Shown here: in pieces, positions 1 to 20,308 of the stretch
How positions within the stretch are numbered: position 1 is the stretch's first letter
Layout: every line of letters begins with the position of its first letter
NCBI GenBank assembly: GCA_910578105.1
Contig: CAJTPD010000011.1
Location: 1-24,000 of the forward strand
Source of the DNA: an uncultured Odoribacter sp.
GTDB taxonomy: Bacteria > Bacteroidota > Bacteroidia > Bacteroidales > Marinifilaceae
DNA: 24,000 nucleotides
Reading direction: 5' to 3'
The notes under the pieces: model-generated
Told to the model about the DNA's origin: nothing
What the model saw: the letters and a program-made list of their open reading frames with translations, nothing else
Database searches by the model: none
Translations under genes and position numbers: made by a program

Positions 1-30
1 CAATTCGCTGCAACAGACATATTAGTTTTA

Positions 31-113
31 TAGAAGCGTTTTTGTTTTTATCCTTGCTTTAGAAACGACCAATTTCAAAACATTGAAGGATAAACGATAC
101 AAACGTTCGCTTG
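31..113. repeat. Imperfect ~80-nt hairpin element, copy A
   Basis: Arm 33-55 (GAAGCGTTTTTGTTTTTATCCTT) pairs with arm 86-112 (AAGGATAAACGATACAAACGTTCGCTT) in three blocks totalling about 20 bp. The ~30-nt loop carries AAACGACCAA (64-73). Confidence 0.6.
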
Positions 114-145
114 CCGTTATATATTACTCAAATATATATATGGAT

Positions 146-229
146 TAAGCGTGGGTTGGTTGTTTATTTCAATGTGGGTTACTTGGTCGTACCTTAAAGC
201 AGATAAACAGAACAGTTCCCACGCTTCTT
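146..229. repeat. Imperfect ~80-nt hairpin element, copy B (diverged inverted copy of A)
   Basis: Arm 147-167 (AAGCGTGGGTTGGTTGTTTAT) pairs with arm 203-226 (ATAAACAGAACAGTTCCCACGCTT). The loop aligns to the reverse complement of the copy A loop: TTCAATGT, then 8 nt, then TTGGTCGT, then TAAAGCA are shared with the same spacing. Confidence 0.6.
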
Positions 230-283
230 TATTTCATATACTTGCCTTTCTGGGGATTTTCAAGGTGCTAAATAATTATTAAT

Positions 284-1039
284 ATGAGAAAACTATTTTA
301 TTTATTCATGGTAGCAATGTGTGCTACTATGTTTACAGCATGTTCAAAAGATGATGACAAAGACCCGTTAGATGATAATGGAGGTAATGGGTCGAAAGAA
401 GGGATGATTACAATGATTGCAGAGAGCGATGAGATTAAGGTGCATATTGAAACTTTTAATGAAGGGGATATTATTACTATAGATTGGGGGGATGGAACTG
501 TGGAAGAGTTTAAAAGTGTTGAAGAATATGACGATTGGGATGAAGATGGCGAAGGTGAAATCTATTATGTAATAAGTATAGATGATTATGTTAAGCATGA
601 ATATTCCAATCGAAATCCCCACATTGTTACAATTAAGGGGAAAATTAAATATTTGGACTGTGGAAACAATAACCTAACTTCATTAGATGTGAGTGGATGT
701 ACGGCATTGACAGAATTGGACTGTTATGGCAATAACCTGACTTCATTAAATGTGAGTGGATGTACGGCATTGACAGAATTGGGCTGTTGGAGCAATAACC
801 TAACTTCATTAGATGTTAGCAAGAATACCGCATTGACATACTTGGACTGTGAGGACAATAAACTAACTTCTTCCGCATTAAACCAGATTTTCAGGGATTT
901 GCCACAAAGAAAAACATGGACAGAGGGTTATGGCTATACTGAACAATCAAGCATCTTTATATATCGCAACCCCGGAAGTGAAACTTGTGACAAGAGTATT
1001 GCAGAAAATAAAGGATGGGAAGTGAATACAATATGGTAA
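284..1039 (+). CDS. Surface-exposed lipoprotein with leucine-rich repeats (BspA-like LRR)
   Basis: Signal peptide ends in the lipobox FTAC. The residues after Cys, SKDDDKD, match the acidic Bacteroidota lipoprotein export signal. More than three 21-aa LRR units (NNLTSLDVSGCTALTELDCxG) follow. ATG start. Confidence 0.85.
   Translation: MRKLFYLFMVAMCATMFTACSKDDDKDPLDDNGGNGSKEGMITMIAESDEIKVHIETFNEGDIITIDWGDGTVEEFKSVEEYDDWDEDGEGEIYYVISIDDYVKHEYSNRNPHIVTIKGKIKYLDCGNNNLTSLDVSGCTALTELDCYGNNLTSLNVSGCTALTELGCWSNNLTSLDVSKNTALTYLDCEDNKLTSSALNQIFRDLPQRKTWTEGYGYTEQSSIFIYRNPGSETCDKSIAENKGWEVNTIW
668..874 (+). repeat. 63-bp tandem repeat (3 full units plus a partial) encoding the LRR units
   Basis: Units begin with AATAACCT at 668, 731 and 794, and AATAAACT at 857. 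By my count units 1 and 2 differ at only about six of 63 positions. Confidence 0.85.
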
Positions 1040-1123: not shown

Positions 1124-2062
1124 ATGACAATTGATAAATTATTTTCCAAATTGAGAAATAACATACCTCTTGCACCCAATAGTAACAAGCCTTTTCATCA
1201 ACACTTACTCGATAATTTTGAAAATTACCTCAGTGGCTTAGAACAATTGAATAGCAATGAATTTCATAAAAGATTCCATAAAATCGAAAAAGAAATTACT
1301 CTGAAAAAATTTATTACAATTGAAAAAAAGATATGTGATATTATTGAAGAATCTATATTAGAGGGAAGAAATGGACGTATAAATTCTGCTTACAAAATGC
1401 TACGTTCTCTATTAAAAAATAAGACAAAAAATCTAAGTGATAACATCTATAATTATTTTGAATGTGATTTTTCAGAAGAAATTAAAGAGTTTTATCGTAT
1501 ACAGAACATGGAACCTGAAAAATATGAATTTCCTAATTCTATGAAACATTGCCCTTTTGAGAATGTTTATCGTACGGGGAATTATAGATTTAGTTTGTCT
1601 GGTTTTCCTTGTTTATATGTAGGTTCTTCTATTGACGTATGCAAATTAGAAACATCAAAACCCAAAGATGGTGAACGATGTTATCAAGCTAAATTTATAC
1701 TAAAAGAGATTCAGCAAAGAGGAAATAAAAAACAACTCTTTTTGAATTTAGTACCTCCTGCAAATTGCACTGATGAAAAAGAATTATTTTATTTTTTATT
1801 ACTATATCCTTTTTATATTGCTTGTTTAGCTAAAAGGAAAGAATCAGAAGGAAATTTCCATGCAGAATATATTATACCACAACTATTATTAATGTATTTA
1901 AGAGAAGAAAAACTCCTTCATGGAATAAAATATCTTTCTACGCATTCTAACGGGAAAGATAATTGTAATGAAATGATAAATTATGTTTTTCCTGTACGAA
2001 ATATAAAGGATAAAGGATTTGATTACGAATTAATAGGACAATTTGAAATGGAAGAAATATAA
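1124..2062 (+). CDS. RES-domain-like protein (putative NAD+-targeting toxin family) with a ~150-aa N-terminal extension
   Basis: NYRFSLSGFPCLYVGSSIDVCKLETS resembles the RES N-terminal block (Arg, then G-x-P-x-L-Y, then Glu about 21 residues later). GIKYLSTHSNG...INYVFPV resembles the C-terminal Ser block. The codon usage is very AT-rich. ATG start, and a strong terminator lies downstream. Confidence 0.6.
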   Translation: MTIDKLFSKLRNNIPLAPNSNKPFHQHLLDNFENYLSGLEQLNSNEFHKRFHKIEKEITLKKFITIEKKICDIIEESILEGRNGRINSAYKMLRSLLKNKTKNLSDNIYNYFECDFSEEIKEFYRIQNMEPEKYEFPNSMKHCPFENVYRTGNYRFSLSGFPCLYVGSSIDVCKLETSKPKDGERCYQAKFILKEIQQRGNKKQLFLNLVPPANCTDEKELFYFLLLYPFYIACLAKRKESEGNFHAEYIIPQLLLMYLREEKLLHGIKYLSTHSNGKDNCNEMINYVFPVRNIKDKGFDYELIGQFEMEEI

Positions 2063-2081: not shown

Positions 2082-2110
2082 AAGCCAGCCCCCCTGCTGG
2101 CTTTATTTTT
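2082..2110 (+). terminator. Rho-independent terminator of the RES-like gene
   Basis: AAGCCAGC (2082-2089) pairs with GCTGGCTT (2096-2103) around the loop CCCCCT, followed by TATTTTTAT. Confidence 0.8.
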
Positions 2111-2112
2111 AT

Positions 2113-2173
2113 AGTGGTGAAAAAATACTGTAATTCCAGTTATATATACCTTTTACAAAATTTACCACCAACT
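2113..2173. repeat. Hairpin formed by repeat arms a1' (AGTGGTGAAAA) and a2' (AATTTACCACCAACT)
   Basis: GTGGTGAA (2114-2121) pairs with TTTACCAC (2161-2168), including one G:T pair, around a 39-nt loop. Each arm is an inverted copy of an arm at 1065-1109. Confidence 0.6.
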
Positions 2174-2466
2174 GAAAATATATGAGTACAGGAGTAGATA
2201 AAGTCAGTATTTTATTACGACAGAAAGAATATGAACCTAAAATGTGAATGCCTATGGAGAATATAGAATGAGACAAAACAAAAATTTGGTCGTTTATATA
2301 CCTCCAGATAAAAATATCTCACTTGCAAAAAGACAAGATTAAGCATATATTTACGTCACAAACAACAAAACAACAGAGTGAAATAACAATAGTATTAACT
2401 TACTTTCGTTTACTTGACAAGTTAAACCATGAGTTAAACCGGAACAAAAGAAGAAGTAACTATAAA

Positions 2467-2571
2467 GCGGAAATAGCTCAGTCGAAGCGGGCAAAAGCGC
2501 AGCTTTTGACTGCCTTGTAGAGCACTAGCCTTCCAAGCCGAAGGTCGCGGGTTCGAGCCCCGTTTTCCGCT
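2467..2571 (+). tRNA. tRNA-Gly(UCC)-like gene with a 32-nt D-loop insertion and a mispaired anticodon stem (aberrant tRNA, tRNA-like RNA or pseudogene)
   Basis: The acceptor stem is perfect (GCGGAAA 2467-2473 with TTTCCGC 2564-2570) and the discriminator is T2571. The D-stem is GCTC/GAGC. The T-arm is GCGGG-TTCGAGC-CCCGT. The anticodon loop is CTTCCAA (TCC at 2532-2534). Removing 2485-2516 restores the canonical GCTCAGTCGGTAGAGC. The anticodon stem CTAGC/GCCGA has two mismatches. Confidence 0.6.
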
Positions 2572-2580
2572 CTCTGAATG

Positions 2581-2612
2581 AGGTAGTTATGAAAGTAGCT
2601 ACCTTTTTCTTT
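2581..2612 (+). terminator. Rho-independent terminator after the tRNA-like gene
   Basis: A 9-bp stem pairs AGGTAGTTA (2581-2589) with TAGCTACCT (2596-2604) around the loop TGAAAG. The T-tract TTTTTCTTT follows. Confidence 0.7.
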
Positions 2613-2809
2613 GTTCTGCATTTTAGTTGCATCCGGCAATTAATGTAAACCGAAACGTCAACCAACTTTTCAATATAGAAGCCTGTATTTCAGTCAAAAT
2701 CCCCCATCATTCTGAAACAAATTTAACTCCTTTCAGAAAGGCAGTATAATATTATTGCCGATGCCCGGATTTTTTTATAATTTAGCAGCTTGTAAATTAA
2801 TAAGAAATT

Positions 2810-3487
2810 ATGAATTTAAAAGACGAATTTCAGAAATATGCTCTCAGTAACCGGGGAATCAGCAGTCTAAATCTGCATCGCTATCAAACAGCAGCGAACA
2901 GTTACATCACTCCCAACATCATCGAAGAACGCCAGTTAAACATTGCTACAATGGATGTTTTTTCACGTTTGATGATGGACCGGATTATTTTTCTGGGTGT
3001 ACCTATTGATGATGATGTGGCTAACATTATTATGGCTCAGTTATTGTTTTTGGAAACAGCAGATCCGGGAAGGGATATTCAACTATACTTCAACAGTCCG
3101 GGAGGTTCCATCTATGCCGGACTTGGTATCTACGACACCATGCAATTTATCAACTGCGACGTAGCCACCATCTGTACAGGTCTGGCAGCTTCCATGGCAG
3201 CAGTTCTGATGTGTGCCGGGACCCAAGGGAAACGCTCCGCCTTAAAACACTCCCGTATCATGATCCATCAACCCATGAGCGGAGTTCAGGGACAGGCATC
3301 CGACATTGAAATCACTTCCCGGGAAGTTCAGAAATTAAAAAAAGAACTTTACTCTATCATTTCAGAACATTCCGGTCAGCCACTCAAAAAAGTAGAAAAA
3401 GATTCTGACCGCGACTATTGGATGACGGCCGGCGAAGCAAAAGAATACGGTATGATCGATGTGATATTAACCAGAGAGAAAAAATAA
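2810..3487 (+). CDS. clpP: ATP-dependent Clp protease proteolytic subunit
   Basis: Full-length ClpP-like sequence with the catalytic Ser context GLAASMAA and His context IMIHQP. It sits directly upstream of clpX. Confidence 0.95.
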   Translation: MNLKDEFQKYALSNRGISSLNLHRYQTAANSYITPNIIEERQLNIATMDVFSRLMMDRIIFLGVPIDDDVANIIMAQLLFLETADPGRDIQLYFNSPGGSIYAGLGIYDTMQFINCDVATICTGLAASMAAVLMCAGTQGKRSALKHSRIMIHQPMSGVQGQASDIEITSREVQKLKKELYSIISEHSGQPLKKVEKDSDRDYWMTAGEAKEYGMIDVILTREKK

Positions 3488-3493
3488 TTATCC

Positions 3494-4708
3494 ATGCAAG
3501 ATAAATGTTCATTTTGCGGAAGAAACCGCAACGAAGTCAACTTGCTCATTGCCGGAACCGACGGCTTTATCTGTGACGAGTGTGCCTCACAAGCTTATGA
3601 GATTGTTCAGGAAGAAATGAAAAATAAATCTACCCTGAATCTGGATAATATTGAAATAAAAAAACCTTTAGAAATCAAAGCGTTTCTGGACCTTTATGTA
3701 ATCGGACAAGACGAAGCTAAAAAACACCTGGCAGTAGCAGTCTACAATCATTACAAACGTTTATTGCACAAAGGCGATAAAGACGATGTGGAAATTGAAA
3801 AATCTAATATCGTCATGGTCGGTCGTACAGGCACCGGTAAAACTCTGCTTGCCCGCACCATAGCTAAAATGCTGCATGTGCCATTCACTATTGTTGATGC
3901 TACCGTATTAACAGAAGCCGGTTATGTCGGAGAGGACATCGAATCTATTCTAACTCGTTTACTTCAGGCAGCAGATTATGACGTTGAAGCTGCCGAAAAA
4001 GGAATTGTATTTATCGACGAACTGGACAAAATTGCCCGTAAAGGCGACAATCCGTCCATTACCCGGGACGTTAGCGGTGAAGGCGTACAGCAAGGATTAC
4101 TGAAATTACTGGAAGGCTCCGTTGTAAATGTCCCTCCTCAGGGCGGACGCAAACATCCGGATCAAAAAATGATTCCGGTAAATACAAAAAATATTCTCTT
4201 TATCTGCGGAGGAGCTTTCGATGGTATTGAGAAAAAAATAGCAGCCCGTATGAACTCTATGGTTGTGGGATTTAACGCCAGTCAAGCATCTGAAAAGATT
4301 GACCGGGAAAATTTTTTACAATATATAGCTCCGCAGGACTTGAAGTCTTTTGGACTGATTCCGGAAATCATCGGACGTCTGCCTGTCCTCACTTATTTAG
4401 AACCCTTGGATCGCCAAGCTCTGCGTAATATCCTGACCGAACCGAAAAATGCCATTATCCGGCAATACATTAAATTATTTGAACTGGATGGAATTACATT
4501 GCAATTCGACGAAAGCGTTTACGAATTTATCGTGGATAAAGCCATTGAATTCCGGTTGGGTGCACGCGGACTTCGCTCTATTTGTGAAGCTATTATGACC
4601 GACCTCATGTTTGAAATACCTTCCCAAAACAAGAAAAGCGTTACTATAACAAAGGCCTATGCCGAAGAAAAATTAAGCAGGATACAGGCCCAAAAACTAA
4701 GGGCATAA
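3494..4708 (+). CDS. clpX: ATP-dependent Clp protease ATP-binding subunit
   Basis: N-terminal zinc finger CSFCG...CDEC, Walker A GRTGTGKT, Walker B FIDELDKI, and the pore loop GYVGED. Confidence 0.95.
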
Positions 4709-6614: not shown

Positions 6615-7595
6615 ACTATAAATAATCCGCCTCAATTCAGGATAAGCGTTATCCAGTTTTCCACTGTCAAACAATCCGGCTATGTTTCTTAGTCCCGGAC
6701 GAATAGAGTCTATAAAATGTTGTTTCCGTTCATAAAGTCCTCTTAACCCAAACGCTCCCATAGCCTGCAAAAGCCGGACTAAAACAAAATGGTAATAATC
6801 CTGCCTGAACTGTTTGCTGTCCGTCAACCGATATTGCTGCAACCCGGTTATGTAATATTCCAGCAATTCCTCCCGCTGTCCGTCAGGAATACGAACAATT
6901 GCATCATACAATAAAGATGCAACATCATATTGTAAAGCCCCTTGTCGTCCTCCCTGATAATCGATAAACCAAACTTCCTCATTACGGACCATAATATTAC
7001 GTGATTGAAAATCCCGGAACATAAAAGCCTGTATCTCTACGTTACACAAACGACAAACCAATTGTTCGAAATCATTTTCCAAAGCATCTTCCGAAAAAAC
7101 TGCATCTGTCAACCGCAGAAAACAATACTTAAAATAATTCAGGTCCCAAAGGATACAACGCCGGTCAAATTGAGGACGAGGAACACAACGGGAATAATCC
7201 ATTCCCTGATTCCCCCATATTTGAAAACGCAATAATTCATCCAAAGCTTTTTTATACAACTCTACCAAATGCTCATTCAACCAATCTCCCTCGCGTTCTT
7301 TCTCTACAACATCCAACAACATTTTATTTCCCAAATCTTCCTGTATATAAGCCAATTTATCAACAGATACAGCATAAATCAACGGAACATGTAACCCTTT
7401 AGCCTCAAAATGCCGGGAAAAATCAAGAAACAAAGTATTTTCTTCTACATTTTGATTCCATGTTCCGATATAAGAACTTTCCCCGCTATACAAACGATAA
7501 TATTTCCGGGCTGAGCCAGACTCCGGCAATAACTCCGTCTTATCCGGCAATTTCCCGGAAAACTTTTCAAATAAATCAATAACTATTTCTTCCAT
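6603..7595 (-). CDS. Aminoglycoside-phosphotransferase-family kinase (AmgK-like sugar/anomeric kinase candidate)
   Basis: Kinase catalytic-loop context RDFQSRNIMV and metal-binding FIDYQG. The ATG at 7595 is preferred over the TTG at 7604. The 3' end overlaps the convergent NUDIX gene by 12 nt. Confidence 0.75.
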   Translation of the reverse strand: MEEIVIDLFEKFSGKLPDKTELLPESGSARKYYRLYSGESSYIGTWNQNVEENTLFLDFSRHFEAKGLHVPLIYAVSVDKLAYIQEDLGNKMLLDVVEKEREGDWLNEHLVELYKKALDELLRFQIWGNQGMDYSRCVPRPQFDRRCILWDLNYFKYCFLRLTDAVFSEDALENDFEQLVCRLCNVEIQAFMFRDFQSRNIMVRNEEVWFIDYQGGRQGALQYDVASLLYDAIVRIPDGQREELLEYYITGLQQYRLTDSKQFRQDYYHFVLVRLLQAMGAFGLRGLYERKQHFIDSIRPGLRNIAGLFDSGKLDNAYPELRRIIYSLQK

Positions 7596-7666: not shown

Positions 7667-7673
7667 TATTTAG

Positions 7674-7757
7674 TGCCCAGGACAAGACTCGAACTTGCAC
7701 AGCCTTTCGACCACTACCACCTCAAAGTAGCGTGTATACCAATTTCACCACCTGGGC
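7674..7757 (-). tRNA. tRNA-Leu(GAG)
   Basis: The reverse complement reads GCCCAGGTGGTGAAATTGGTATACACG... The anticodon loop is TTGAGGT, there is a long variable arm, the T-arm is GTTCGAGTC, and the acceptor stem is GCCCAGG/CCTGGGC. Confidence 0.92.
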
Positions 7758-7767
7758 GATTAAAAAG

Positions 7768-7851
7768 TGCCCGAAATAGGACTCGAACCTACACGGCCGT
7801 GAAGCCACTAGTACCTGAAACTAGCGTGTATACCAATTTCACCATTCGGGC
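7768..7851 (-). tRNA. tRNA-Leu(CAG), copy 1
   Basis: The reverse complement reads GCCCGAATGGTGAAATTGGTATACACGCTAGTTTCAGGTACTAG... The anticodon is CAG and there is a long variable arm. Confidence 0.92.
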
Positions 7852-7885
7852 AATTTATTTTTTAAAGAACTTCGAAGGAGAAAAG

Positions 7886-7969
7886 TGCCCAAGATAGGAC
7901 TCGAACCTACACGGCCGCGAAGCCACTAGTACCTGAAACTAGCGTGTATACCAATTTCACCACTTGGGC
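7886..7969 (-). tRNA. tRNA-Leu(CAG), copy 2
   Basis: Same body as copy 1. The acceptor stem is GCCCAAG/CTTGGGC, which differs from copy 1 by compensatory changes. Confidence 0.92.
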
Positions 7970-7977
7970 GTCAAGTG

Positions 7978-8048
7978 TTGTCCCACCAGGACTCGAACCT
8001 GGACTGACAGAACCAAAACCTGCTGTGCTGCCATTACACAATGGGACA
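7978..8048 (-). tRNA. tRNA-Gln(UUG)
   Basis: The reverse complement reads TGTCCCATTGTGTAATGGCAGCACAGCAGGTTTTGGTTCTGT... It has a U1:A72 pair, the anticodon loop TTTTGGT, and the T-arm CCAGG-TTCGAGT-CCTGG. Confidence 0.9.
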
Positions 8049-8265: not shown

Positions 8266-11200
8266 ATGTATACAATTAAAGAGCATCCAAATTTGAATTT
8301 CAGGTTTATCAACCGACTGACCGGATGGGTCATTTTTGTTGTTGCCAGCCTAACGTACATACTCACAGCAGAACCAACAGCCAGCTTGTGGGATTGCGGC
8401 GAGTTTATCACCACTTCTGTGGGACTGCAGGTAGGACATCCTCCCGGAGCACCGTTATTTATGATCATTTCCCGACTGTTTGCGATTTTCGCTCCTTCAA
8501 TAGAAACCCAGGCATTAATGATTAATTATATGTCAGGCCTATGTTCCGGTTTCACCATCCTGTTTTTATTCTGGTCCATCACACATCTGGCCCGTAAACT
8601 GGTAGTGAAAGAAGGGGAAGAAATGACTTTAGGGCAAATGTTTGCTATCCTTGGAGCCTCTTTGATCGGTTCACTGACTTACACTTTCACTGATACTTTT
8701 TGGTTCTCTGCAGTGGAAGGCGAAGTATATGCAATGTCTTCTCTCTTCACTGCCGTTGTATTCTGGGCAATTTTAAAATGGGAAAATGTAGCTAATGAAA
8801 AATATGCTAACCGCTGGCTGGTGTTGATTGCCTACTTAATCGGTTTATCCATTGGTGTACACTTACTGAACCTATTGGTTATTCCTGCAATTGCTTTTGT
8901 ATATTATTTCAAAAAATACACTCCAACCGTCAGAGGATTCATTAAAACAGGTATTTTATCACTAATTATTTTAGGTATTGTAAATTTTGGAGTCATACCC
9001 GGAATCATTAAAATAGCTGGTTGGTTTGAACTTTTATTTACCAATAGTTTCGGGCTGCCTTTCAATACAGGTGTGATTATTTATGTATTCCTGATTATCG
9101 GGGTTCTGACCTGGGGTATCCGCTATACCCTCCGCAAAGGAATGCCCGTTTGGAATACCATTTTAACATGCTTTATGGTCATCCTGATAGGCTATTCTTC
9201 CTATTCAATGGTAGTCATTCGTTCATTAAGCGACCCACCTATCGATGAAAATAGTCCGGATAATGTATTTTCTTTGTTGTCTTACATCAACCGGGACCAA
9301 TATGGGGATAGTCCCTTACTGTATGGCCAGTACTTCAATGCCCCCCGGATAGGATATGAAGAAGGTGCACCTATTTATTACCAAAATAAAGAAACCGGGG
9401 TATACGAAAAAATCGGTAACAAATTCAATTATAAATATGATCCCCGGTTTTGCGGTTTCTTTCCCCGAATGCACAGTGACCAAAGATCTTATTATCCGTC
9501 ACAATACCAAGCCTGGGGAGGAAAGAACAATGGACCGACTTATATGGTAGACGGACAAGCTATTACACGTCCCAGCTTTGGAAATAACATGCGGTATTTT
9601 TTCAATTACCAATTAGGACATATGTATTGGCGGTACTTTATGTGGAATTTCTCCGGACGCCAAAACGATATCCAGGGAAATGGAGACATTATTCATGGCA
9701 ATTGGATTACCGGCATTAAATTCCTGGATGAAATGCGTTTAGGTAATCAGTCGGAACTTCCGGATACCCTGAAATCCGAAAAAGCATACAACAAATATTA
9801 CCTGCTTCCTTTTTTGTTGGGTATATTAGGCATATTCTATCAGTATCGGAAAGGACGTACCGGCAAGCAAGATTTCTGGGTTGTTATGTTATTGTTTATC
9901 ATGACAGGTATTGCCATTATCGTTTTCTTGAATCAGTCTCCGATGGAACCCCGTGAACGGGACTACGCTTATGCAGGTTCATTCTACGCTTATGCCATCT
10001 GGATTGGTTTAGGAATTCTCGCATTATGGGAGTTCATGACTAAACACATCCGGAAACTCACTCCATCTGCAGCAGCAATTATTGTCACCGGAATATGTTT
10101 TTTTGCAGTGCCTGTAAACATGGCTGCACAAAATTGGGATGACCATACCCGGACCGGACGTTATGCAACTCTTGCTCACGCCAAAAACTATCTGAACTCC
10201 TGTGCTCCGAATGCTATTCTGTTTACCTATGGTGACAATGATACTTTCCCTTTATGGTATGCTCAGGAGGTGGAAGGAGTACGCCGGGATATCCGGATTG
10301 TCAACCTCAGCTTGTTGGCAGGGCCATGGTACATTGACCAAATCAACCGCAAAGCGTATGAAAGTCCCGCAGTACCAATCTCTTTCACCAAGAATCAGTA
10401 CCGGGACGGGAAACGGGACAGAGTCTATATTATGGAACGTTATAAACAGGCAAATTTACGTGAAGTCATGGAATTTGTTGCCAGCGATTTACCACAGACT
10501 AAACTAAAAGAACCCGGAATTACAGAAGAAATAGACTATATCCCAACCCGGAATTTATACCTGCCGATTGATTCGGCACAGGTTATTGCCAATGGGACTG
10601 TAAAAGCAAAGGATGCCGACAAAATTGTCAAAGAATTGAAATTGACCCTGAAAGGCAATGGTTTAAACAAATCTGAAACCATGCTCCTGGATATTATCAG
10701 TACCAACAATTGGGAACGTCCCATTTATTTCGGTATCGGCATACCAACAGATTCCTACATGGGACTTGAAAAATATTTCCAGGTTGAAGGAGCTACTTAT
10801 CGTCTGGTCCCCATTGAAACTCCTAGTAAACGGAATGAATATGGAGGCACGGATTACGGAAGAATCGATTCAGATATCCTTTACAACAATATAATGAATA
10901 AATTTGAATGGGGAAATATTAAAAATCCAAAAGTTAATATTGATAACTTCCATGATATCATCATCGGCTCTATGCAATACAGGAATACGATGCAACGTCT
11001 GGCATCCCAATTACACCAAGAAGGGAAAGACGACAAAGCTGTGAAAGTACTGGATAAAAGTCTGGAAGAATTACCATTATCACAAGTTCCTATAGATATC
11101 GTTTTCCTGGATTATATCACATTATATTATGAATTGGGAGAAACAGAGAAAGCCAACCATTTACTGAATGAATTGGCAACCGATAATTTCCAGATGTTGA

Positions 11201-19438: not shown

Positions 19439-20308
19439 TTATAAATAATTTTTCAACCGCTTAGTATTTTTCATTTCTTTCAATTTACGGATTGCTTTGG
19501 ACTTTACCTGTCTGACCCTTTCGCTAGTCAACCCCAGTTTTGTTCCAATCTCTTCCAGAGACATGGCGGAATACTCTTTTAAACCGTAATACATATTTAA
19601 AATAGAAGCTTCCCGTTCGGAAAGAATAGCAAAAGAACGTTCTATATCCTTTCTCAACGAATCCAGATTCAACAACGCCTCCGGTCCTTGAATAGCCGGC
19701 TCTGTAGCAATATAAATTTCATATAATGAAGTAGATTCCTCGTCCGTTGTCAATGGAGCGTCCATTGAAACCGGTTTACTGGCAATTTTCAGATTTTCCT
19801 TCACCTCCGCCGGCGTTATGTCCATTTTCTCTGCAATTTCATCCTCTGTCGGTTCCCGCTGAAATTCCTGTTCTAAAACAGTATAACAACGATTCACTTT
19901 ATTAATTGTACTAATTTTATTTAACGGCAAACGGATCAAACGGGCATTCTCAGCAATAGCTTGTAAAATAGATTGCCGGATCCACCATACTGCATAAGAA
20001 ATAAACTTGAAACCCTTGGTTTCATCAAAACATTCTGCCGCTTTTATCAATCCCAGATTACCTTCATTTATCAGATCCCCAAGAGTCAACCCATGATTTT
20101 GATATTGTTTCGCAACAGATACAACAAAACGTAAATTACTTAAAACCAATTTTTCACGTGCAATTTTATCCCCTGTCCGGATTTTTTTGGCCAAATCAGC
20201 TTCTTCTTCAGGTGATAAAACATGAATTTTGCCTATCTCCTGAAGGTATTTTTCCATGGCATATGATTCACGCCCGGTAATCTGCTTTGTTATTTTAAGC
20301 TGCCTCAT
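19439..20308 (-). CDS. rpoD: Primary RNA polymerase sigma factor (short Bacteroidota sigma-70)
   Basis: Region 2 contains FKFISYAVWWIRQSI and region 4.2 contains LEEIGTKLGLTSERVRQVKSKAIRKL. The 289-aa length is typical of Bacteroidota SigA. Confidence 0.92.
   Translation of the reverse strand: MRQLKITKQITGRESYAMEKYLQEIGKIHVLSPEEEADLAKKIRTGDKIAREKLVLSNLRFVVSVAKQYQNHGLTLGDLINEGNLGLIKAAECFDETKGFKFISYAVWWIRQSILQAIAENARLIRLPLNKISTINKVNRCYTVLEQEFQREPTEDEIAEKMDITPAEVKENLKIASKPVSMDAPLTTDEESTSLYEIYIATEPAIQGPEALLNLDSLRKDIERSFAILSEREASILNMYYGLKEYSAMSLEEIGTKLGLTSERVRQVKSKAIRKLKEMKNTKRLKNYL

Follow-up and report, generated by a model that had tools for sequence, protein, structure and literature searches.

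Tyrosine integrases of the anticodon-loop class exchange strands at the anticodon loop of a target tRNA gene, and everything in the tRNA between the crossover and its 3′ end is repeated in the attachment site of the element (attP). The Bacteroides mobilizable transposons NBU1 and NBU2, and integrative mobilizable elements related to them, have tRNA-Leu and tRNA-Ser genes as targets and enter these at the 3′ end. The attachment (att) sites of tRNA-targeting tyrosine integrases, including the anticodon-loop class, were reportedly described by Reiter et al. in 1989 and by Williams in 2002 (Nucleic Acids Res). Here we analyze a tRNA-Gly(UCC)-like sequence at positions 2467 to 2571 of a 24,000-nucleotide (nt) stretch of DNA (the window; contig CAJTPD010000011.1, positions 1 to 24,000, assembly GCA_910578105.1) from an uncultured Odoribacter sp. 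An initial annotation of this pseudo-tRNA had proposed a decayed tRNA, a tRNA-derived regulatory or decoy RNA, or a new small intron or insertion element. Comparison with related loci points instead to a sequence that is very probably the att-site junction left by two tandemly integrated, tRNA-targeting tyrosine-integrase elements of one family. These would be integrative elements of gut Bacteroidales that insert into tRNA genes and encode an integrase with Arm-DNA-bind_5 and Phage_int_SAM_5 domains.

The elements resemble tRNA-targeting phages and islands in that the integrase lies beside an intact tRNA at the left end (attL), a duplicated tRNA 3′ block lies at the far end (attR), and there are arm-type repeats, an arm-binding integrase domain and a crossover that we place in the anticodon loop. 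They differ from them in that the far end is a near full-length tRNA look-alike with an element-supplied 5′ part, not a bare 3′ fragment, and in that this look-alike is interrupted by a conserved 32- to 44-nt hairpin precisely where the identity block begins on its left (tRNA position ~20/21). With NBU1 and NBU2 they share the host order, a tyrosine integrase, a tRNA gene target and the small size with accessory cargo. NBU1, however, has a short common core, as opposed to the ~55-nt identity block here, and the NBU att sites are not known to have a pseudo 5′ half with a hairpin. Mycobacteriophages with tRNA-dependent lysogeny reportedly bring a complete working tRNA gene that is needed to establish lysogeny; here, by contrast, integration would restore an intact tRNA at attL, and it is a disabled look-alike that makes up the second copy. 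What the two cases have in common is a temperate element tied to tRNA genes during integration (PMC10865867). The mechanism of att junction formation is thus a known one, whereas a hairpin-interrupted, near full-length pseudo-tRNA at the right end is, as far as we can tell, seemingly undescribed; a literature search, of incomplete coverage, found no description of such att ends, and we know of none.

Rereading of the sequence together with ARAGORN and Rfam tests bore out the earlier description of its stems, its insert and its anticodon-stem mismatches. Positions 2467 to 2571 form a tRNA-Gly(UCC)-like cloverleaf whose D-loop is split by 32 nt (2485 to 2516). The acceptor stem is GCGGAAA/TTTCCGC with discriminator T, the D stem GCTC/GAGC, the anticodon loop CTTCCAA and the T arm GCGGG-TTCGAGC-CCCGT; the acceptor identity set (G1:C72, C2:G71, G3:C70, U73), the anticodon UCC and a normal T arm are all present. 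The anticodon stem, CTAGC/GCCGA, has two mismatches (C27.A43 and A29.C41) versus the 5-bp stem expected of a tRNA, whereas in 11/11 of the metagenome relatives described below it is unbroken (CTAGC/GCTGG). The first two bases of its 3′ strand (2536 to 2537) still belong to the preceding part, 2517 to 2538, and the sequence of 2536 to 2571 is GCCGAAGGTC...TTCGAGCCCCGTTTTCCGCT. Run on the window, ARAGORN found four ordinary tRNAs (Leu, Leu, Leu and Gln; 7673 to 8048) and left 2467 to 2571 uncalled. Rfam gave no tRNA call for the latter at the gathering threshold, and under permissive settings RF00005 scored it at 19.4 bits versus a cut-off of 29. Removal of 2485 to 2516 made ARAGORN call tRNA-Gly(tcc), with the two anticodon-stem mismatches remaining, in agreement with the sharp insert boundaries that had been proposed. 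The sequence is derived from tRNA-Gly(UCC), as annotated, and is rejected by both programs as an ordinary tRNA.

The D-loop region measures 40 nt, compared with about 7 to 11 nt in a canonical tRNA, and in the predicted fold C17, G18 and the following G are paired inside a 14-bp irregular hairpin and not free for the T-loop. Other variants have defects of their own in the acceptor stem, C2 being replaced by A in variant B and position 5 being mismatched in variant A. With a D-loop that, as folded, cannot reach the T-loop, a disrupted anticodon stem in the window copy and mismatched acceptor stems in other variants, the pseudo-tRNA is very unlikely to serve in translation. Native Bacteroidales tRNA-Gly(UCC) genes (L050, 582 to 655; L067, 9777 to 9850) have the D-loop AGTTGATA and the T-loop TTTGAG(C/T), which imply an A19-U56 tertiary pair instead of the usual G19-C56; in the window copy these positions are G and C.

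Among 185,579 species genomes scanned for a tRNA-Gly(UCC) whose D-loop has a gap of 20 to 50 nt, the only match was a chimeric Saprospiraceae contig, unrelated to the window; the present species or element is evidently missing from that set of genomes. In this contig (L037, 1201 to 1290; metagenome-assembled genome contig JAHDBH010000040.1) a tRNA-Thr(TGT)-like 5′ portion reaching to the T arm is joined directly to a tRNA-Gly(UCC) 3′ portion, and the fusion arose either during assembly or through recombination within a Thr-Gly-Tyr-Thr cluster. The same pattern searched against metagenome contigs gave 12 loci, 11 of them clear homologues, mostly from the human gut and with a gap of 35 to 36 nt. 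These 11 contigs represent four to five sequence variants that differ in the acceptor 5′ strand and the hairpin; from TAGAGCAC to the 3′ end they are identical, with the T-loop TTTGAGT. Together with the window they span at least two host lineages, one Prevotella-like and one Odoribacter-like. The recurrence of the insert-bearing form in 11 contigs, with compensatory changes in its hairpin, speaks against the plain decayed tRNA that had been among the original proposals.

Alignment of the flanks reveals a conserved order: promoter-like box, two arm repeats, pseudo-tRNA, terminator, two arm repeats and integrase start. The box, TATATTT(G/A) with CTTG 20 nt before it, occupies the same aligned position in every family member, and has counterparts in the tRNA-Lys attR described below (TACCTTTG) and in the more distant element L081 (TACATTTG); it fits the Bacteroidetes promoter consensus, TTTG / TAnnTTTG. 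The arm repeats, GT(C/T)AA(A)CC with a 12-nt period, form a doublet upstream of every pseudo-tRNA. A doublet is also found between terminator and integrase start at the attL of tRNA-Val, Phe, Lys, Pro and Gly, and the spacing of the downstream doublet matches that of the repeats before intact integrases (L074, L057, L060, L068 to L070, L078 and L085). The same terminator hairpin lies 3′ of the tRNA at every attL and every junction, with compensatory changes (for example GGTAG/CTACC as opposed to GCAC/GTGC in L057 and L074), and the terminator originally noted 3′ of the window gene is indeed represented by a terminator-like hairpin (Table 1).

The integrase start (motif M-x-x-S-I-S-V/I-I-x-Y-K) is recognisable 3′ of the pseudo-tRNA in four to five of the loci, among them L055, L057, L060 and L061. 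At this junction position the gene is truncated in L060 (273 amino acids [aa]), frameshifted in L057 (387 aa) and reduced to short start remnants in L055 and L061; intact homologues of 405 aa have a Phage_integrase catalytic domain in addition to Arm-DNA-bind_5 and Phage_int_SAM_5. The seven-codon remnant of the window aligns with ATG AAA GCC TCT ATT TCA GTT (M K A S I S V) of L060 and also with L055, L057 and L061. After position 2695 the similarity to the elements stops, and the clpP upstream region comes next. Cargo varies by locus, with leucine-rich-repeat (LRR) and RES-like genes in the window, AbiGi, a 619-aa LRR-like protein and a HEPN-like protein in L055, and a YidD-like protein plus a 174-aa protein after DUF3871 in L054, L060 and L061. 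L055 also has a bare tRNA-Gly 3′ fragment (T arm and acceptor strand; oriented positions 7084 to 7150) accompanied by the same terminator, and at 19530 to 19610 of L081 arm repeats of the types GTAAGCA and GTAAACC are stacked. These two observations indicate serial occupation and decay of elements at the tRNA-Gly site.

Both ends of the elements and an empty site could be recognised in other contigs. In L053, the EF-Tu of which is 94 to 95% identical to Prevotella proteins, a variant A pseudo-tRNA lies 9 nt upstream of tRNA-Thr(GGT)-tuf-tRNA-Trp, with the island cargo on its 5′ side, i.e., in the attR configuration. The empty site is seen in L067 (EF-Tu 99% identical to that of L053), where the order is Thr(TGT)-Tyr-Gly(TCC)-Thr(GGT)-tuf. 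A block of 57 nt (TAGAGCAC...CCGCTCTC) is identical between variants A to D and the native tRNA-Gly of L067, L065 and L074; the window copy departs from it at five positions, in its right part. The attL configuration is represented by L074, in which host genes, promoter and tRNA-Tyr precede an intact tRNA-Gly; a terminator, TGTCAACCAAGACGTCAACC and an integrase gene come next, the 405-aa integrase being intact and sharing 98% identity with that of L057. An attL is likewise seen in L081. Two contigs, L066 and L076, begin exactly at TAGAGCAC, the left edge of the repeated block in tRNA-Gly, as expected if two different left flanks coexist in one sample. The tRNA-Pro contigs L094 and L098 likewise begin at tRNA position ~20/21, and such contig starts provide a useful assembly signature of these elements.

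The same organization recurs at other tRNA genes. Integrase homologues with 41 to 50% identity are located directly 3′ of intact tRNA-Val, Phe and Lys in Bacteroides finegoldii and Phocaeicola massiliensis, with the same terminator and GTAAACC doublet after each tRNA, and copies in Odoribacter splanchnicus and Butyricimonas are located 3′ of tRNA-Pro genes. The O. splanchnicus copy (L077 to L079, 4001 to 5095) is a truncated integrase of 364 aa that lacks the catalytic domain, follows tRNA-Pro(GGG) and is present on about 1000 contigs; apparently it is a fixed relic of the same element family in that species. The B. finegoldii record NZ_OY725919.1 contains both ends of one ~10-kb element. One end has an intact tRNA-Lys(TTT) with the integrase, and the other a tRNA-Lys copy in three pieces: 20 nt of the 5′ part with a single mismatch, then an insert of 44 nt, and finally 55 nt with 100% identity to the tRNA; this look-alike is preceded by TACCTTTG and two GTGTAAACC repeats. 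The integrases of the Gly and Lys lineages are only ~41% identical. L081, a more distant Gly-specific element (integrase 64% identical), carries at the corresponding place an uninterrupted, complete copy of tRNA-Gly; attP therefore probably contained a whole tRNA copy originally, to which the hairpin was added later. The attR of the tRNA-Val and tRNA-Phe elements was not found in the stretches searched, the remainder of the tRNA-Val record lying outside the search. The Butyricimonas tRNA-Pro elements extend past the retrieved flank, and only the contig breaks at tRNA position ~21 were observed for them.

Within this family the window copy is set apart by an abrupt change in similarity. Compared with L055, there is 1 difference in 343 nt over 2196 to 2538 and there are 10 in 74 nt over 2539 to 2612 (Fisher's exact p = 1.7e-7), and beyond this point identity is about 47%. 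Five of the 33 nt at 2539 to 2571 differ from L055, L062 and all other variants, and with L062 the same five differences fall in 2539 to 2558; positions 2529 to 2538 lie within the last stretch that the window and L055 share identically. We infer from this that the window copy is chimeric, belonging to the lineage of one element (E1) through the anticodon loop, stem strand CTAGC included, and to that of another (E2) after it, stem strand GCCGA. Besides the GCCGA strand and the TTCGAGC-containing T arm, the E2 side would comprise terminator, arm repeats and what is left of the integrase. Since the two stem strands have different partners, strand exchange would have occurred in or just after the anticodon loop (2529 to 2538). 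The anticodon-stem mismatches would then be the footprint of a heterologous crossover rather than an adaptive redesign, and the "rewired" anticodon stem of the initial annotation gives way to a recombination chimera on the strength of the window-L055 breakpoint. The alternative helix CCTTC/GAAGG adduced for the rewiring can indeed be drawn, but GCCTTC/GRRGGU can also be drawn in four relatives in which the anticodon stem is intact; because native tRNA-Gly has the same stretch, the helix is mostly a property of tRNA-Gly(UCC) sequence.

The comparisons show the two ends of an integrated element. At attL the tRNA is intact, and a terminator brought by the element, a pair of arm repeats and the integrase gene come after it. 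At attR lie the promoter-like box, two arm repeats and a 5′ tRNA copy running into a 32- to 44-nt hairpin, followed by the last ~55 nt of the tRNA, a 3′ block identical to the host tRNA gene from position ~21 on. The block presumably starts there because this is where the outer edge of the 11-bp core-binding site 5′ of the 7-nt overlap would fall. In the window, the right end of E1, with its LRR and RES-like cargo, adjoins the left end of E2. Tandem integration is the simplest proposed history: E1 would have recombined with the tRNA copy that a resident E2 carried at its left end, as befits integrases of the anticodon-loop class; E2 would later have been deleted up to clpP, leaving its terminator, its arm repeats and 21 nt of its integrase gene. 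On these comparisons the window copy is a decayed relic of an att junction.

Several points weigh against this interpretation. The case is wholly comparative, the recombination being deduced from sequence, and the attL and attR of the Gly elements were found on different contigs and not in one genome. The window locus adjoins clpP and not the native tRNA-Gly cluster, which makes the deletion or rearrangement history an inferred one, and the promoter-like box at 2322 to 2353 is only predicted. The GCCGA-type 3′ part is of unproven origin, with five point mutations in a relic as the alternative: BLAST hits in phages and plasmids were confined to the 3′ half (≤90.7% identity; Bacteroides and Parabacteroides genes), and viral scans for it gave nothing or coincidences in coding sequence, so the chimera is argued from the breakpoint statistics and not from a partner sequence. 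Lastly, because the related Gly-specific element L081 carries an uninterrupted tRNA copy, the hairpin is dispensable for basic att function.

Table 1. Features of the pseudo-tRNA locus and its surroundings in the window
Feature	Positions	Strand	Remarks
Promoter and long leader before variable cargo genes	1-283	+	Copies 71-84% identical elsewhere
Leucine-rich-repeat protein (cargo)	284-1039	+	Pfam LRR_4, E 6.9e-13
RES-domain-like protein (cargo)	1124-2062	+	Pfam RES 21.6 bits, below the 23.2 cut-off
Noncoding right-end module of E1 (putative P arm of att site)	2095-2466	+	Alignable in 11/11 metagenome loci
Bacteroidetes-type promoter-like element toward pseudo-tRNA	2322-2353	+	CTTG 2322-2325, 20-nt spacer, TATATTTA 2346-2353
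P-arm direct repeats, presumed integrase arm-type sites	2421-2440	+	GTTAAACC at 2421-2428 and 2433-2440
Putative element-encoded pseudo 5′ part of tRNA-Gly	2467-2484	+	Acceptor 5′ strand, positions 8-9, D-stem 5′ strand, AGTCG
32-nt D-loop hairpin insert, sequence AAGCGGGCAAAAGCGCAGCTTTTGACTGCCTT	2485-2516	+	
D-stem 3′ strand, anticodon-stem 5′ strand and anticodon loop (putative left att core)	2517-2538	+	Identical to native Prevotella-type tRNA-Gly
Rest of anticodon-stem 3′ strand, variable loop, T arm, acceptor 3′ strand	2539-2571	+	Putative other att partner
Intrinsic terminator, putatively from downstream element E2	2580-2612	+	11-bp stem and T run; hairpin 2580-2605
P′-arm direct repeats	2645-2663	+	GTAAACC 2645-2651, GTCAACC 2657-2663
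Integrase-start remnant, 7 codons, start codon lost	2675-2695	+	ATA GAA GCC TGT ATT TCA GTC
clpP upstream region, core chromosome start	2750-2810	+	Conserved in Odoribacter relatives
clpP	2810-3487		Pfam
clpX	3494-4708		Pfam

The hairpin that the initial annotation saw in the insert is real and is conserved, though it pairs in a different register: in place of AAAGC/GCTTT, the best predicted pairing joins CAAAAGC to GCTTTTG in a 7-bp helix that is capped by a GCA triloop and stacks, over a G.A mismatch, on GCGG/CTGC. The predicted fold is a plain irregular hairpin of -12.3 kcal/mol (z -2.0). Across five distinct sequences 11/11 hairpin pairs are kept and none is broken, two of them by double compensatory change (G-C to A-U and C-G to G-C) and two by a G.U/A-U switch. 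The acceptor stem behaves otherwise. Its 5′ strand reads GCGGTGA, GAGGGAA, GCGGAAA or GCGGGAA depending on the variant, and because the 3′ strand is constant, mismatches arise in variants A and B (one A.G and one U.U). The L055 copy, which is the best preserved, is accepted by Infernal as a tRNA with an insertion (55 bits over its full length). In the tRNA-Lys pseudo-tRNA, the 44-nt insert at the equivalent tRNA position is predicted to form a strong hairpin of -18.6 kcal/mol (z -4.1), which includes three G.U pairs and has a GCA triloop as well. The motif GCGARGCTTTT is common to the Gly and Lys inserts, and the P arms of the two element types can be aligned, the 3′ half of the insert included; the shuffle p for the motif, about 0.03 to 0.06, is too weak to establish homology of the two inserts.

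In a viral sequence collection, the 22-mer hairpin core had its sole match in L052, a high-GC hairpin outside any tRNA context. This IMG/VR contig shares 23 nt (GGCAAAAGCGCAGCTTTTGACTG; 36 to 58) exactly with the insert core, inside a longer imperfect hairpin; the match, with a chance expectation of about 0.01, may reflect convergence of A-tract/T-tract hairpins and was treated as unrelated. The window holds no second copy of the 32-mer at ≤8 mismatches, and a dispersed repeat or miniature inverted-repeat transposable element was rejected on these two results. The small insertion element or intron originally envisaged fared no better, every copy of the insert other than that viral hairpin being found within the same att architecture.

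Two readings leave out recombination. That the gene is a working tRNA-Gly(UCC) with an expanded D-loop, or with a new small intron removed after transcription, would fit the intact identity set, anticodon and T arm of the window copy, the normal tRNA-Gly position before tRNA-Thr-tuf in L053 and the acceptance of the L055 copy by Infernal. We regard it as extremely improbable in view of the two anticodon-stem mismatches and the low Rfam score here, the changes at C2 and position 5 in other variants, the intact tRNA-Gly copies at the opposite end of the same element family and the intact gene 10 kb from the Lys counterpart in one assembly. Archaeal tRNA genes have bulge-helix-bulge introns at the D-loop and other noncanonical positions, and the short helix-forming insertion in the D-loop region is superficially like these. 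To our knowledge, however, bacteria have no splicing endonuclease for such introns, and the insert, of only 32 nt, cannot house a ribozyme core, has no Rfam intron match and shows no bulge-helix-bulge (3-4-3) motif in predicted folds, including at its junctions. Moreover, the flanking tRNA parts gather acceptor and anticodon-stem defects, unlike the intact exons of an intron-bearing tRNA. Only marginally better placed, and still highly improbable, is a strain-specific pseudogene produced by random insertion or a dispersed repeat and by point-mutation decay. Its absence at the orthologous locus in relatives and the extra substitutions of the window copy would be as expected, but the insert has been retained in 11 contigs that come from different samples and represent at least two host lineages, has no other copy in the window, and has no unrelated D-loop-interrupted tRNA-Gly to set beside it in 185,579 genomes save one chimeric assembly; the substitutions, in addition, cluster on one side of the anticodon loop. 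Of the three observations that had been named as marks of a plain pseudogene, one was made, namely absence upstream of clpP in the closest relatives, and mobile DNA explains it. In sum, the pseudo-tRNA lacks the defining properties of a working tRNA, a known intron or a dispersed repeat, and its sequence has those by which an att junction can be recognized.

Given the att-junction reading, what the hairpin does is a separate matter. A regulatory or decoy RNA, as proposed originally, is compatible with the data, but the att-site role comes first because the identity of the mimicked tRNA follows the integration target (Gly; Lys in B. finegoldii). An element between tRNA-Gly and tRNA-Thr-tuf would bring a left-end terminator that severs the downstream genes from the operon promoter. 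We give about even chances to the idea that, at attR, an outward promoter together with the decoy 5′ half enables the displaced 3′ fragment of the tRNA to adopt a compact tRNA-like fold that RNase P can process. Host genes farther downstream that have lost their promoter, such as tRNA-Thr-tuf in L053, would in that case go on being transcribed and processed, while the hairpin would exclude the copy from translation. That the decoy 5′ half and hairpin are a selected RNA device that spares downstream genes and is perhaps an excision handle, arisen or kept in both the Gly and Lys lineages, is rather doubtful. Selection on the hairpin is nevertheless favoured by the compensatory changes, the analogous hairpin in elements of other specificity and the upstream promoter-like boxes.

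A somewhat broader version, which adds to the att reading, is a selected functional RNA of the element, transcribed outward and processed by RNase P and at its 3′ end, that may help to process or express flanking genes, regulate excision or transfer, or act as a decoy to factors that bind tRNA. We consider this possible but on the unlikely side. The substitution pattern with no broken pair, the retained promoter-like box, the full-length tRNA score of L055 and the Lys hairpin with its shared position, triloop and motif all agree with it, as do the G.U pairs (one to two in Gly hairpins, three in Lys), which raise the stability of the sense strand and lean toward a role as RNA, although the sample is too small to be sure. 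On the other hand, just four to five independent variants do not make the covariation statistically strong, an inverted repeat bound by a dimeric protein would covary alike, variants A and B have acceptor mismatches, and L081-type elements do without the hairpin. The DNA-level counterpart, to which we assign a similarly modest likelihood, is a P-arm inverted repeat for an excisionase, the integrase core domain or a bending protein, with the 5′ part a relic of a full tRNA copy in attP. Such a site would fit the location of the hairpin between arm repeats and core, where phage lambda has its Xis, IHF and Fis sites, the presumed ancestral state of L081 and the alignable P arms of Gly and Lys elements. 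Against it, the asymmetric positions are all G.T on the sense strand, which fits RNA or single-stranded DNA better in a sample too small to decide, and a neutral relic 5′ part should have decayed more in two lineages with integrases so divergent.

The surroundings of the junction agree with a mobile origin. The right-end module (2095 to 2466) is 97.6% identical to L055 and 83.6% to L062, the RES-like gene has its own terminator at 2081 to 2104, and GC content is 26 to 29% at 1000 to 2400 versus 36 to 45% in clpP-clpX. The ClpX protein is 92% identical to that of Odoribacter splanchnicus and 94% to those of other relatives. Exact matching of ClpP retrieved the source contig and two short contigs and added no sequence on the upstream side, where the contig ends about 235 nt before the window. 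None of the twelve clpP-clpX loci of Odoribacter relatives (L038 to L049) has a tRNA or tRNA-like gene upstream of clpP; of positions 2063 to 2810 only the final ~60 nt match these loci, and the upstream neighbours of clpP vary among them (M16 peptidases, an ORF6N gene, Mfa2-type genes). By its sequence context, then, the pseudo-tRNA is at a synteny break on lineage-specific low-GC DNA, and its absence from the clpP locus of relatives follows from its belonging to mobile DNA.

At the left edge of the window, positions 1 to 283 hold a consensus Bacteroidetes promoter (TTTG-N19-TATATTTG) and a long-range complement, GCGTGGG...CCCACGC, and copies precede different cargo genes in L054, L060 and L061 and twice in L055. 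The leader of this noncoding module of ~300 nt appears structured (GCGTGGG...CCCACGC, GGATAAAC); in relatives the module lies just 3′ of the backbone gene DUF3871 and before the variable cargo (L001, 1 to 480; L055, ~400 to 870 and ~8660 to 9150, oriented; L060, 6400 to 6890; L061, 910 to 1400). No Rfam family matches it at 1 to 283. It could be a cargo-expression leader or a cassette boundary.

D-loop insertions were also encountered in tRNA-like genes of viral contigs. Seven of these (L007, L012, L014, L023, L033, L034 and L035) carry tRNA-like genes with a covarying 15- to 16-nt D-loop hairpin and an odd anticodon region, TCGG-TGTGAAAG-CCGT; examples are L012, 8090 to 8184, and L023, 6608 to 6702 (oriented). 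The members scanned gave no Rfam call at the gathering score. None of the neighbouring open reading frames looked integrase-like on inspection of the translations by eye, no family scan having been made, and these genes were accordingly not used as support. Further phage tRNA-like genes have D-loop insertions of 19 to 34 nt, in L036 (338 to 444; 51 bits with RF00005), L008 (2151 to 2261; Asn-GTT-like) and L006 (2065 to 2161; Arg-TCT-like), and L009 (6440 to 7290) contains a tRNA array with 9- to 13-nt anticodon loops.

Overall, the tempting reading of this locus as a new bacterial tRNA intron is replaced by a documented att-site mechanism. The right ends of these elements in gut Bacteroidales are missed by tRNA finders and may be mistaken for odd tRNAs or pseudogenes in metagenome-assembled genomes, whereas terminator, arm repeats and integrase start together make a simple signature for annotating such elements and their decayed relics. 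In the window, a naturally formed heterologous junction would locate the strand exchange of this integrase family at the anticodon loop. The location of the site before tRNA-Thr-tuf in some hosts raises the question of how the host remains viable when an essential operon is interrupted; if the decoy 5′ half and hairpin do act as an RNA device, integration into the essential tRNA-tuf operon would not starve the downstream genes.

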